DNA of 64,000 bases, from the NCBI GenBank assembly GCA_965221165.1, contig CBDCRP010000003.1, positions 896,001 through 960,000 of the forward strand, in the 5' to 3' direction. Position 1 is the first letter of the stretch. Each line of letters starts with the position of its first letter. The position numbers and the translations under genes were made by a program. The DNA comes from a bacterium (GTDB lineage: Bacteria; UBA8248). The notes below the pieces were generated by a model. It worked only from the letters and a program-made list of their open reading frames with translations. It was not told the DNA's origin and ran no database searches. Below are positions 38,842 to 52,940 of the stretch, piece by piece.

Positions 38842-38895
38842 CCTCGCCTCGATTTGTAGCGCGCTGATTGTTCGAGCAGTATAGTTTTTCTGAAG

Positions 38896-39059
38896 TGCTG
38901 CAGGGGGGCTTTCCTCAGGAAAGCCCGGGAAGCCGGTGAGAATCCGGCGCGGACCCGCCACTGTAACCGGGGACGAAAGCGGCCGAAACCACCGGCGTAA
39001 GGCGCCGGGAAGGGGTCGTGAGTAGGTGGATCCGGAAGCCAGGAGACCGCCCTGCGGCA
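38896..39059 (+). promoter_or_regulatory. Cobalamin riboswitch 1
   Basis: GGGAAgccGGTGAGAATCCggcgcggaCCCGCCACTGTAA ... GGGAAGG ... AAGCCAGGAGACC B12 box; P1 TGCTGCAGGG/CCCTGCGGCA. Confidence 0.92.
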
Positions 39060-39218
39060 ACCTTTTGACCCGTCACGTCCTCGCGGAACGGGAGATGGGT
39101 GGCATCTTGCGCATCATCACACCCGAAATCGACGGCACTACAGCACGCGCGAGTATCACGCACGCGCTGCGTTAAAGTTTTCGCCATAGGAGCGGTGGAC
39201 CCGTCCGCCGCCAAAACA

Positions 39219-39362
39219 GCCGGCAGGTGTTCGGGAATCCGGTGTAAGACCGGAGCTGCCCGGCAGCTGTAAGCGACGCGCTTTTCATAATATCCACCGG
39301 GACACCCCCGGGAAGGAATGAAGAGCGGCCATCGGCGCGAGCCAGAAGACCGGCCTGTCGGC
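39219..39362 (+). promoter_or_regulatory. Cobalamin riboswitch 2
   Basis: AGGTG.TCGGGAAtccGGTGTAAGACCGG.GCTGCCCGGCAGCTGTAA ... GGGAAGG ... GAGCCAGAAGACC; P1 GCCGGCAGG/CCTGTCGGC. Confidence 0.88.
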
Positions 39363-39425
39363 ATCTCCCCTGCGACCCTCCGGGGTCGGTTTCGAGCGCT
39401 TGGGCCGCTCAAGGAGTGTAATCCC

Positions 39426-50260: not shown

Positions 50261-50335
50261 ACAAAGCCGGGCGTGATAGGGTGGGGCTACATACACCAAC
50301 GAAAAAATCTACAAACGCCAACCCCGGAGCGCGCC

Positions 50336-51361
50336 ATGAACGAGATGGATGAATTCGAATTTTTTCTGGAAAAACCCTGGTCCGACGGCTTCCCCGTGGT
50401 CACGCCCACCGAGGAGCGCATCGAGCGCATGCTCACGGGAACGAAGAGACCGCCCGATGAGGCGCTCTGCAAAGTCCCGCCGCTCGATGAGGTCGCCACC
50501 GTGCGGAGCGTCGCCGTCCACGCCGTCATGGCGGGGTGCAGACCCGAATACCTACCCGTCGTCATCGCGGCTTTGGAGCTCATCGTGGAAGAGGCGCTCA
50601 ACCTGCGCGGCGTGCAGGCCACCATGCACAGCGTAGCGCCCCTGCTCATCGTGAACGGCCCCTATGGGAAACGCATCGGGGTAACGGGCGGGCAGGGTTG
50701 TTTCGGCCCCGGCTTTCGGGCGAACGCCACCATCGGCCGCGCGGTGAGGCTCCTGCTGCTCAACCTGGGCGGCGGCGTGGCGCGCGTGGCCTGCATGAGC
50801 ATCTACAGCCAGCCGTCTCGCTTCACGTTCTGCATAGCCGAGAATGAGGACGAAGGCCCCTGGGAGTCGCTGGCCGTATCGCGGGGATACGGCCCGGATG
50901 AGGACGTCATCACCGCCGTCATGGTGGAAAACCCCCACATCGTCTTCAACGACGTGGACCGCGACCCCAAGCGCCTCCTCGTCTCCCACATGGACAACAT
51001 GGCGGCGATGGGTTCGTGGCCCATCTGGGTGAGGTCCGACACCGTGCTCATCCTCTCGCCCGAACACGCCCGCCTGTGCGAGCGGGCCGGGTTCTCGCGC
51101 GCGGACGTGCACGCATATGTTTGTGAGAACGCGGGGCGCACCGTGGGGGAACTCAAGCGCGGCGGCCCCTGGAGGGAGGATAAGCCGAACGGGCGGTGGA
51201 CCTATCCGGTGGACAGGGAGGATGATGATTTCTTCATCCGCGTCGTGAACGAACCGGAAGACCTACACCTCATCGTCGCAGGCGGCAACGGGCCGCTCGG
51301 CGCGGTGATGCCCGGCTGGAACGGCGCGAGCCGGGCGGTGCACCGGGCGTATACGCCGTAG
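50336..51361 (+). CDS. Conserved uncharacterised protein (PWSDGFPVVTPT family), paralog B
   Basis: Aligns along its length with 30314..31345 (WSDG.PVVTPT, AVMAGC.PEYLPV, GPGFRANATIGRA, IVAGG). Confidence 0.75.
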   Translation: MNEMDEFEFFLEKPWSDGFPVVTPTEERIERMLTGTKRPPDEALCKVPPLDEVATVRSVAVHAVMAGCRPEYLPVVIAALELIVEEALNLRGVQATMHSVAPLLIVNGPYGKRIGVTGGQGCFGPGFRANATIGRAVRLLLLNLGGGVARVACMSIYSQPSRFTFCIAENEDEGPWESLAVSRGYGPDEDVITAVMVENPHIVFNDVDRDPKRLLVSHMDNMAAMGSWPIWVRSDTVLILSPEHARLCERAGFSRADVHAYVCENAGRTVGELKRGGPWREDKPNGRWTYPVDREDDDFFIRVVNEPEDLHLIVAGGNGPLGAVMPGWNGASRAVHRAYTP

Positions 51362-51399
51362 GGGCAATTCCGACCGAAGAGAGAGGGATTGCTCAGGAA

Positions 51400-51585
51400 A
51401 CACCGTCATTCCGGTGTCATTCTCGCCCGATGAGGAAGAGAATGCGGAATCCGGGGAATTTGCTTTTGCATCTTTTGCCGCGATTTCCACCTCCTCGTAG
51501 AGGAAAAGAAATACCACAATAGTTTCACCCTCCCCGGTTCCGGCCAACCTTTCGGTTGCCACCCGCATGCGCCGGAATGACGAGG
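51400..51585. repeat. REP-derived ~140 bp element, inverted copy of 49491-49628
   Basis: Reverse complement reads GTCATTCCGGCGCATGCGGGTGGCAACCGAAAGGTTGGCC...AAATTCC..GG.TTCCGCA, matching 49491-49628. Confidence 0.75.
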
Positions 51586-51722
51586 ATAAAAACACGCTCG
51601 AATCAAGAAACCACCCCTCCCTGAAGTCAGTTCCCTCTTTTCACTCCCTCTTGAGACACATTTCCGACCGTAGCAGGGGCACCTATAGAAAACGCATTTC
51701 CTCCTCTCATCGCTCGAAACAG

Positions 51723-51749
51723 CAGTCTTCCCCTCCTCGGGGAAGACTG
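51723..51749. terminator. Perfect 11-bp hairpin insulating the non-coding locus
   Basis: CAGTCTTCCCC-tcctc-GGGGAAGACTG; only a weak T-tract follows. Confidence 0.45.
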
Positions 51750-51783
51750 ACCTTTCACTCAAAATGGATGAAAAAATCATTCC

Positions 51784-51813
51784 TTGACAAACCCAAAAAA
51801 GCTATCGCAAGAT
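51784..51813 (+). promoter_or_regulatory. Putative sigma70 promoter P1
   Basis: Perfect TTGACA, 18 bp, CAAGAT; AT-rich upstream element. Confidence 0.45.
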
Positions 51814-51817
51814 GTAC

Positions 51818-52623
51818 ATTGCGATGCAATCCACGAGGTGAAGAGGCTTCGGCTGTTCGCCAACCACGAGGCGATCTTCTTCTGGAAGGTCGAAAATCGG
51901 CGAGAAATTCACCTTGACAAAATGCAAAAAGCTGTAGCAATATCAGAGTTGCGACACAGATCCATGAGGTGCAGTCGATTTCGGGCTGCTCGCTGAATAC
52001 AACACGTCTTTCTTCTTGAAGGACGGAATAGGCGAGAACCCACCTCAAGAACCTATACCTCGTGGATTGTGTCGCAACCAGCCCGGACTGCGTGTCCGCA
52101 AGGTTGCCGGCCCCGGTGCTGCCCAAAGACTCACAAGTGGTTTTGTTGCGGCCCGTATAGATACACAAGGTAAGAAGGTTAATCGTAGAAAACCGGAAAT
52201 ATGCTGAAAAATCCCTTTTTCTACTCCGGGTTCGCAGCAGCAGGCGCCTTCGGCGTGAGAGGCGGCACGGGTGACGCCGCCATGAGCCTCATCGGCGCTT
52301 ACAAACAGTAGAGCAAGACGCCTTGCCTTGGCTCTTGGGTTTTATATACGACGCCCGGGGAGAAGGCGGACAAATAAAGAAGAGTAAAGGGGGCTGCTCA
52401 TTGGTTGCTTCCCTCGTGATTGAGCAAACTGTACCGCTCCTTGCTTAGAGTTTGAGTCCTCGAGCCGGGAACGGGAACAATGGGCAACCCCCGCTTTTTT
52501 TATAACGCGCTTTGGCGACGCCTGGCAATTCCGAAAAAGGGGCTATCCCCTCCCCGTTTTTGACTGGAATCAAGAATGTTCGCCGAGAGGTGAATCGGGA
52601 GAGGGGGCGAGCCCTTTTTTTTT
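51818..52623 (+). ncRNA. Putative large structured non-coding RNA (or cluster of sRNAs), unassigned
   Basis: Between convergent genes, no credible long ORF, two promoters, extensive pairing with compensatory changes, two long hairpins each followed by a T-tract. Confidence 0.5.
51914..51943 (+). promoter_or_regulatory. Putative sigma70 promoter P2
   Basis: Perfect TTGACA, 18 bp, CAATAT; homologous to P1 and 130 bp downstream of it. Confidence 0.45.
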
Positions 52624-52659
52624 GCGTAGCGGCGTTTTACTTCTCCCGTTCCCTCCCTT

Positions 52660-52940
52660 CTCGACCCGAGCAGTACCTCCTTCATCAGTCGGCAATGACC
52701 ACCGCCTTTGATCGTCATTCCGGCGCATGCCGGTGGCAACCGCAAGGTTGACCAGGGGTTAACCTGTTGCCTTTATCCTGCGATATCTTCGGTGCAAATC
52801 TGTCGGGCGGCATATATGCCGCCCCTACGAAACGAATCGCTTCTCTCCCGATCATCCGTAGGTGGCGGTCCCTCCCTTTCCGGTCGGCAAACCCTCCCGC
52901 ATTGGTCGGCAAACCCTCGCTCCTCGCTCGGGTTTGACCC
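52660..52940. repeat. REP-like palindromic repeat cluster
   Basis: GTCATTCCGGCGCATGCCGGTGGCAACCGCAAGGTTGACC, GGGCGGCATATATGCCGCCCCTACG, GGTCGGCAAACCCTC x2, CGCTCGGGTTTGACC. Confidence 0.75.

Follow-up and report, generated by a model that had tools for sequence, protein, structure and literature searches.

We analyzed 64,000 nucleotides of DNA from a bacterium (GTDB lineage Bacteria; UBA8248; NCBI GenBank assembly GCA_965221165.1, contig CBDCRP010000003.1, positions 896,001 to 960,000 of the forward strand), hereafter called the window, and found that a tandem repeat in a gene-free gap carries a previously undescribed leader RNA family, which is outside Rfam 15. The family is structured, pseudoknotted and covarying, about 125-150 nt long, and sits before genes for secreted and surface proteins in two phyla. 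We propose, with a probability of about 0.55, that it represents a conserved pseudoknotted 5' leader, which has its own promoter and acts in cis on the following gene as a riboswitch-like switch. In the following, G000 denotes the source genome, and coordinates of the form 51xxx-52xxx are window positions on the + strand.

Structure and covariation of the RNA family

Homologs were collected with the covariance model (CM) R1, which was built from 11 sequences with the helices P1 and P3 only, leaving out the pseudoknot. The covariation set comprised 111 R1 matches, of which 84 are distinct, and 500 shuffles and slides of the pairing partners by 1-3 columns served as controls. Standard pairs filled 92.5% of the cells in the 84 distinct copies, against 77.4% in the shuffled alignments, with 0/500 shuffles reaching the observed level, and double-sided changes were present in 37 of the 41 pairs. 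When the 3' partners were slid, pairing fell to 35-49%. The closing helix P1 showed changes on both sides at 20/20 pairs, with 90.6% of its cells paired, and the P1 arms of two G000 paralogs differ from those of the window by compensatory changes. In the hairpin P3, the lower stem (6/6 pairs) and the upper stem (8/8 pairs) covary throughout. A preliminary description of the window, prepared from its letters without database searches, had pointed to a compensatory change in the 8-bp stem of this arm; the change is real and constitutes one case of the family-wide covariation. Similarly, the "anti-repeat" at 52057-52078, described there as complementary to the 5' ends of both units, proved to be the 3' strand of P1.

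Furthermore, a pseudoknot, P2, pairs CGGGYYG, directly 3' of the P1 5' strand, with CRRCCCG, directly 3' of the P1 3' strand. This core, which is absent from the model, was 94% paired and contained 39 double-change cells, against 18.3 in shuffles (0/500), while the slid controls gave 21-45% pairing; at one of its pairs, 42 copies have UA and 31 have CG. The complementarity of 52079-52091 to the hairpin region of unit 2, which had been noticed earlier, is thus that of the 3' strand of a covarying pseudoknot. The small hairpin GCAGTC...GGCTGC drawn for the same region did not hold up, since it showed no covariation (70.6% paired vs 69.7% in shuffles). Linkers of 0-4 nt connect P1 with both pseudoknot strands, and we reason from this order of strands that P1 and P2 would lie side by side or form alternately.

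The unpaired bases of the family are also strongly conserved. In the P3 internal loops and the junction, A57, A58, T59, A60, A62, A64, A66, A129, A130, A133, A143, A144 and C146 are the most conserved, each at 93-99% across the 84 distinct copies, and the junction columns 143, 144 and 146 (AA.C) reach 96-99%. The P3 internal loops are nearly invariant as GAAUACAAnAC/GGAAUA (also written GAAUACAA/GGAAUA), and the conserved junction sequence is GGGAACCC. The loops had been regarded as variable and guide-like from a comparison of the two units in the window, a view that the conservation of the unit 2 loops over the family contradicts. The segment 51948-52078 folded at -59.9 kcal/mol, compared with -33.2 +/- 3.8 for 200 shuffles (z = -7.0; 0/200 as good), and R1 scored 172.9 bits on the sense strand and 30.6 bits on the antisense strand, which fits an RNA read from the + strand.

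The features of the locus are listed below.

51784-51813, + strand: promoter-like site of unit 1, with TTGACA (51784-51789), an 18-nt spacer and CAAGAT (51808-51813); in 8/8 orthologs
51819-51911, + strand: unit 1, a truncated, degenerate copy with a 5' arm, a hairpin like the pseudoknot 5' strand and a P3-like arm with other loops
51914-51943, + strand: promoter-like site of unit 2, with TTGACA (51914-51919), an 18-nt spacer and CAATAT (51938-51943)
51948-52094, + strand: unit 2, a complete family member with P1, pseudoknot P2, P3 and junction J, from its R1 score of 172.9 bits
51949-51970, + strand: P1 5' strand, from covariation
51971-51988, + strand: pseudoknot 5' strand, with the core CGGGCTG (51982-51988) and a possible extension GCAGTC (51971-51976)
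51989-52036, + strand: P3 hairpin, with lower stem CTCGCT/GGCGAG and upper stem CGTCTTTC/GAAGGACG
51995-52004 (GAATACAACA) and 52026-52030 (GAATA), + strand: conserved internal loops of P3, from base conservation
52037-52056, + strand: junction J, with conserved AACCCAC (52037-52043) followed by a variable linker
52057-52078, + strand: P1 3' strand (the former anti-repeat), common to the 5' arms of units 1 and 2
52079-52091, + strand: pseudoknot 3' strand, with the core CAGCCCG (52079-52085) and the extension GACTGC (52086-52091)
52095-52228, + strand: conserved leader tail, extending in relatives through a third copy, which is diverged, to a lipoprotein gene with its ribosome-binding site
52113-52121, + strand: alternative partner of the pseudoknot 3' strand, CCGGTGCTG (orthologs keep CCGGCGCTG), from the minimum free energy (MFE) fold and the alignment
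52229-52312, + strand: possible 3' remnant of a lost lipoprotein gene (AAGAFG...KQ, then stop), from a tblastn match with E = 3.8

Promoters and the tandem locus

Promoters were scored as at least 5/6 matches to TTGACA at 32-39 nt 5' of the model start, together with an nAnnnT box at a spacer of 16-19. Such a TTGACA-type promoter was found in 65 of the 84 distinct copies, 64 of them at 32-35 nt, compared with 5/84 in a control window 100 nt further upstream of each copy. This placement puts the predicted transcription start at the first bases of P1, suggesting that the leader is probably transcribed from its own sigma-70-type promoter. At the window locus, the predicted starts are at about 51819-51821 for unit 1 and about 51949-51951 for unit 2. 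A strict consensus promoter scan listed neither of the two promoter-like sites in the window, because their -10 boxes are weak. Taken with the fold z-score and the covariation, the TTGACA boxes bear out the initial proposal of a structured RNA element with its own promoter.

The tandem lies in the interval 51361-52773, which contains no convincing open reading frame (ORF) and is flanked by a + strand ORF (50273-51361, 362 aa), which has no Pfam domain and is possibly not a real gene, and by - strand genes downstream. The two diverged direct repeats, the anti-repeat and the hairpin complement are present in the sequence as first described, and repeat searches agreed: 51782-51824 and 51912-51954 are direct repeats of 72% identity at 130-nt spacing, and the 3' ends of the units are likewise repeated (51895-51906 and 52027-52038). 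Inverted-repeat searches gave 90% complementarity between 52057-52077 and 51819-51839, 100% between 52068-52078 and 51948-51958, and pairing of 52074-52085 with 51982-51993. The preliminary description treated the repeats as two like units, but unit 1 has neither its own 3' closing strand nor its own pseudoknot 3' strand, and it matched R1 only at 51851-51924 (model positions 36-107; 25.3 bits), compared with 172.9 bits for unit 2. The locus is promoter 1 with a truncated copy, followed by promoter 2 with a full copy of the leader RNA.

The whole tandem, including both TTGACA boxes, both units and the anti-repeat, is kept in 8/8 aligned orthologous loci. A BLAST search of 51540-52760 against 41 related genomes detected it in 17 of the 22 genomes of the same genus and in none of the 18 searched genomes outside the genus.

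Distribution of the family

Individual copies of the RNA are more widespread than the tandem. By R1, G000 contains four full copies in addition to the partial match at unit 1 and antisense echoes, and BLAST within G000 found two paralogs of about 73% identity. Within the same Nitrospinota genus, R1 matched in 20 of 22 genomes, where a single genome has as many as about 18 matches (counts that include antisense echoes and partial matches); it also matched in 1/19 genomes from other genera of the family and in 24/51 genomes of the phylum. An exact-pattern scan of 185,579 species genomes yielded 51 stretches, which belong to Nitrospinota/Nitrospinaceae or unlabelled "bacterium" metagenome-assembled genomes (MAGs) and to one Alphaproteobacteria MAG, and the same pattern gave only 10 stretches in a metagenome collection.

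The alphaproteobacterial MAG (G058) contains eight copies by R1, and 15 of 41 genomes (G058 and 40 relatives) had R1 matches. A second model, R2, built from these alphaproteobacterial R1 matches, found nine copies in G058 and 1-13 copies in 20 of 49 genomes of its order; of 151 genomes sampled evenly over the entire alphaproteobacterial phylum, only two had matches, one of them G058. The alphaproteobacterial type has the same P1, pseudoknot strands, GAAUA(C/G)AAC and GAAUAGG loops and 3' tail, with a larger P3 tip. Conserved homologs, by which the preliminary description had proposed to check the element, exist both in the genus and in an alphaproteobacterial order. In plasmids, neither the Nitrospinota nor the alphaproteobacterial RNA type gave a blastn match.

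Genes downstream of the RNA

Downstream genes were defined as ORFs of at least 90 aa within 700 nt that are preceded by a Shine-Dalgarno (SD) sequence, and signal peptides and lipoboxes were assigned by a simple heuristic. Such an ORF follows 57 of the 84 distinct copies; the N-terminus resembles a signal peptide in 41 of the 57, and a lipobox, typically LAGC with a glycine run, is present in 20. Each ortholog and each tandem copy enters these counts individually. In the Nitrospinota set, many of the start codons lie about 25-70 nt 3' of the RNA. Pfam searches of 43 downstream ORFs gave matches for 13 and none for 30: TbpB_B_D in four (three above the cut-off), Sel1 in two, Bac_transf in two, and Ank, OMP_b-brl, Glyco_transf_25, DUF4875 and phage integrase in one each. 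With one further copy, three copies precede Bac_transf sugar transferases. Among the proteins that co-occur with the RNA, a point that the preliminary description had suggested checking, many are lipobox/poly-Gly (TbpB-like) lipoproteins or have other secreted or envelope roles.

Of 22 alphaproteobacterial copies, 16 lie before genes for lipobox lipoproteins, with the start codon 19-49 nt downstream, and four of the 16 proteins gave weak TbpB_B_D matches, below the cut-off. Homology links the lipoproteins of both phyla, as each of the 14 alphaproteobacterial queries matched Nitrospinota ones, the best at 55-59% identity over 111-185 aa and one at 42% over 337 aa. The neighbours of 12 alphaproteobacterial copies include transposases, an integrase, a group II intron reverse transcriptase, a type IV secretion coupling protein and others, so that the unit of promoter, leader and lipoprotein looks like a mobile cassette; neither a TonB receptor nor Slam was found among the neighbours of these 12 copies.

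Several further observations concern these lipoproteins. At L058, L059, L061 (G011, G022 and G010) and other loci, arrays of 2-3 leader copies occur, each before its own paralogous lipoprotein gene, and the encoded proteins have near-identical N-termini (MRNAKKQLK...LVC...GCGGGGG), which points to diversification of gene families behind a common leader. In addition, G000 encodes a homologue of Slam (PF04575, SlipAM; 95.6 bits) at G000:C2:1041445-1042314 (- strand), which is flanked by a copy at C2:1041219-1041261 of the element, like a repetitive extragenic palindrome (REP), that brackets the gap in the window (see below), and by a repeat at C2:1043100-1043149 that is also present at window 52249-52298.

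Probable loss of the gene at the window locus

In the relatives, promoter 1 with a truncated copy comes first, then promoter 2 with a full copy; about 135 nt of spacer separate these from a third copy and a lipoprotein gene. The third copy is full and diverged (39-53 bits), and the lipoprotein gene lies about 150 nt beyond it, as in G007, where a 609-aa lipoprotein (MMFRDKS...LAGCGGGG) follows. Among 12 orthologous loci, seven have a lipoprotein gene, two have an integrase(-like) gene instead, and three (G000, its nearest relative G005, and G014) have none. The preliminary statement that no coding gene follows the tandem is hence correct for G000 and for two other loci, and does not extend to those with lipoprotein or integrase-like genes.

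In G000, the leader tail ends at about 52228 and is followed by a short stretch with the translation AAGAFG..., which weakly matches residues 592-607 of the 609-aa G007 lipoprotein (tblastn, E = 3.8). It is suggestive only, but 52229-52312 might be a remnant of the 3' end of a lost lipoprotein gene. The third copy and nearly the whole lipoprotein gene would then have been deleted in G000, where the region is 88% identical to that of G005, leaving the leader orphaned; such a loss would account for the absence of a gene after the tandem.

Other elements accompany this locus. At L021:6431-7678 (G020) and at L024 (G013), a P4-type integrase gene (Phage_integrase and Arm-DNA-bind_3) replaces the lipoprotein gene 3' of the third copy, suggesting that an island integrated here in two relatives. 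At window 52377-52497 (+ strand), there is a strong fold of about 120 nt with a terminator-like GC stem and U run (-51.3 kcal/mol for 52370-52505), which has no Rfam match; it is single-copy in G000, occurs in at least 10 copies at about 85-93% identity in several relatives, and often lies directly 3' of this locus's lipoprotein gene in relatives. The entire gene-free gap is bracketed by 42-nt inverted repeats (51542-51583 and 52712-52753; 93% complementary), copies of the REP-like element mentioned above, which has about 40 BLAST matches in G000 and many copies in relatives. Elsewhere in the window, tandem cobalamin riboswitch aptamers lie about 140 nt apart at 38885-39069 and 39208-39372 (+ strand; 114.5 and 90.6 bits).

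Proposed mechanism

According to our proposal, an RNA of about 125-150 nt would start at its first helix from a sigma-70-type promoter, and this leader would act in cis on the next gene, which typically encodes a TbpB-like surface lipoprotein of the lipobox/poly-Gly type; the controlled gene may also encode another secreted or envelope protein in the Nitrospinota genus. A ligand or some other factor would shift the balance towards the pseudoknotted fold and away from a hairpin formed by the pseudoknot 3' strand with downstream sequence, and the change of fold would alter translation or the continuation of the transcript. At the tandem locus, both 5' arms would compete for the single P1 3' strand. 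Transcription, regulation in cis and the switch itself are steps that we infer from sequence comparison.

Mutually exclusive pairings, which the preliminary description had raised as one option in the form of a conformational switch, are indeed predicted at two levels. In the MFE fold of the window, the pseudoknot 3' strand (CAGCCCGG) pairs with CCGGTGCTG at 52113-52121, and over the family this strand pairs downstream in the local MFE fold of 73/84 copies (87%), compared with 67% of shuffles; the local fold energy is -18.6 kcal/mol in the copies and -15.2 kcal/mol when shuffled. In the tandem, about 21 bp without a mismatch can form between the 5' arm of unit 1 and the only P1 3' strand, and this duplex is more stable in 8/8 orthologs (-35.8 to -39.6 kcal/mol) than that of unit 2's own arm (-30.6 to -36.4 kcal/mol). 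Transcripts from promoter 1 and promoter 2 should therefore fold differently. Furthermore, in the L045 group (12 loci, orthologous to G000:C3:1934474-1934612), a conserved downstream sequence, GGGAGGAUUGUAUGGG, mimics the P1 3' strand and holds an SD sequence and an AUG. In this group, a strictly conserved GGGAGGAUUGUAUGGGU lies about 60-75 nt 3' of the RNA, the AUG opens about 6-10 codons, and the SD/AUG segment, about 250 nt 5' of the lipoprotein start, may be a regulatory upstream ORF.

Several observations weigh against this proposal. The excess of alternative 3' hairpins is modest. The P1 arms are no more complementary to their own downstream sequences than to non-cognate ones, either in the Nitrospinota set (41 vs 46 of 83) or in the alphaproteobacterial set (20 vs 22 of 38). 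No general expression platform was found, with P1-arm mimics in some subfamilies only, and inspection by eye, which gave no counts, revealed no evident intrinsic terminators. The downstream genes encode surface proteins rather than the transporters or enzymes that would indicate a metabolite, and since no gene follows in G000, the RNA at this particular locus may be functionless or act differently. As for the structure, many of the 84 alignment rows are orthologs, so that the counts are not independent; P1 and P3 are part of R1, which biases the alignment towards both helices; and the pseudoknot extension GCAGUC/GACUGC is weakly supported, with a cognate duplex of -9.4 and a non-cognate one of -8.5 kcal/mol. 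On balance, we favour a riboswitch-like change between the pseudoknotted fold and the 3' hairpin.

More tentatively, the family could be a new riboswitch class that senses, for example, a nutrient captured by the lipoprotein, a metal or a second messenger, and that has spread across phyla as a promoter-aptamer-gene cassette with TbpB-like lipoproteins and been recruited by a wider set of envelope genes in the Nitrospinota genus. The family shows two features generic to riboswitches: a covarying aptamer-like structure with conserved unpaired bases and, in many copies outside the window locus, the arrangement of a 5' untranslated region (UTR), with a promoter upstream and an ORF 19-70 nt downstream.

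Alternative explanations

The closest competitor, which we consider unlikely on balance, is a constitutive or protein-bound leader, in which P1 and the pseudoknotted fold protect the mRNA 5' end, or bind a regulator, the ribosome or RNA polymerase, as in translational repression or processive antitermination. A 5' stem-loop stabiliser of the kind found in the ompA 5' UTR requires a helix near the transcript start, and in most copies P1 begins within a few nt of the predicted start. The genes, for polysaccharide transferases and for envelope and secreted proteins, are also the kind of regulon that RfaH/ops and EAR leaders control; the cassettes are located in variable regions, with transposases and integrases as neighbours, as suits a self-contained unit of expression; and no consistent expression platform was found. 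A plain stabiliser, however, would need neither the invariant internal loops nor the pseudoknot, and a lineage-specific protein partner is hard to reconcile with the occurrence in two phyla, unless this partner is universal or was co-transferred; EAR, JUMPstart and any other Rfam leader gave no match.

It is improbable that units 1 and 2 at the orphan locus are trans-acting small RNAs, which pair with targets or titrate a protein. Their own promoters, the lack of a following gene in G000, G005 and G014, the 88% identity still retained between G000 and G005, and recurring SD-like GAGG motifs would agree with this explanation; yet no terminator is found 3' of unit 2, the RNA is continuous with an ORF 25-70 nt downstream in 7/12 orthologous loci and in most paralogs, and the state of G000 and G005 would be explained by a recent deletion.

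Least probable by far are the other two options of the preliminary description, a short RNA of the 6S kind or a pair of repeat and anti-repeat RNAs whose loops resemble guides, which drew on the long closing stem from the 5' and 3' ends and on the loops that differ between units 1 and 2: the RNA is multi-copy at gene 5' ends, its interior is a covarying hairpin and a pseudoknot and not an open bubble, RF00013 had no match in 51300-52800 at E up to 10, the canonical 6S RNA of the genome is encoded elsewhere (G000:C3:1403348-1403529; 79 bits), the unit 2 loops are invariant in the family, with those of unit 1 differing because it is a degenerate copy, and 0/8 flanking ORFs in the immediate neighbourhood have a nuclease or Cas domain. 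A bridge RNA or seekRNA of the IS110 type was considered and dropped, because the locus is syntenic in this genus and its upstream ORF, of 362 aa, lacks any Pfam domain.

Significance

The leader is a well-supported structured RNA family that is missing from Rfam 15. Genes for surface lipoproteins of the Slam-type/TbpB-like kind are classically controlled by Fur/Zur, and the leader would be the first candidate for a cis-regulator of such genes beyond this picture. Since homologous lipoprotein genes are found with this RNA in both phyla, the leader appears to be a portable regulatory module, whose ligand or partner should be a general one. With its pseudoknot, invariant loops, multi-copy gene set and cross-phylum spread, the family is a good candidate for an orphan riboswitch; should this prove correct, its ligand would reveal how these mostly uncultured bacteria control the remodelling of their cell surface.

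Comparison with known RNA families

Rfam 15 gave no match on the element in scans of the window (gathering threshold), the region 51300-52800 (E <= 10), 20 Nitrospinota loci (E <= 1) and 20 alphaproteobacterial loci (E <= 0.1), in line with the initial failure to match it to a known family, and no paper on the leader RNA turned up among those reached by full-text literature searching. The 6S RNA (RF00013) resembles the element in its long closing helix from the 5' and 3' ends and is of the same order of size, whereas the element is multi-copy, lies upstream of ORFs, and has a structured, pseudoknotted interior with no central bubble.

GEMM riboswitches, which respond to cyclic di-GMP, occur in many copies as leaders of genes for surface and secreted proteins, sometimes in tandem, with conserved unpaired bases and, in class II, a pseudoknot. 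Our family is similar in all of these respects, including the diversity of the genes that it precedes, but its architecture and consensus differ, and there was no match in sequence or structure: the class I and II models (RF01051 and RF01786) had 0 matches in G000 at E <= 0.1, the permissive Rfam scans showed neither of them at the RNA, and G000 has only one GGDEF gene, which says nothing about the ligand.

Conserved leader elements of polysaccharide and surface-protein genes are also exemplified by EAR RNA, JUMPstart/ops (RfaH) and put RNA; unlike these, our family lacks an Rfam match, and most of its copies stand 25-70 nt before a single lipoprotein gene rather than at the head of a long operon. 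Finally, the 5' stem-loop stabilisers of the ompA type share with it a helix at or next to the predicted 5' end and their association with mRNAs for outer-membrane and surface proteins, but the leader family described here, with its pseudoknot and invariant loops, exceeds them by far in complexity and conservation.

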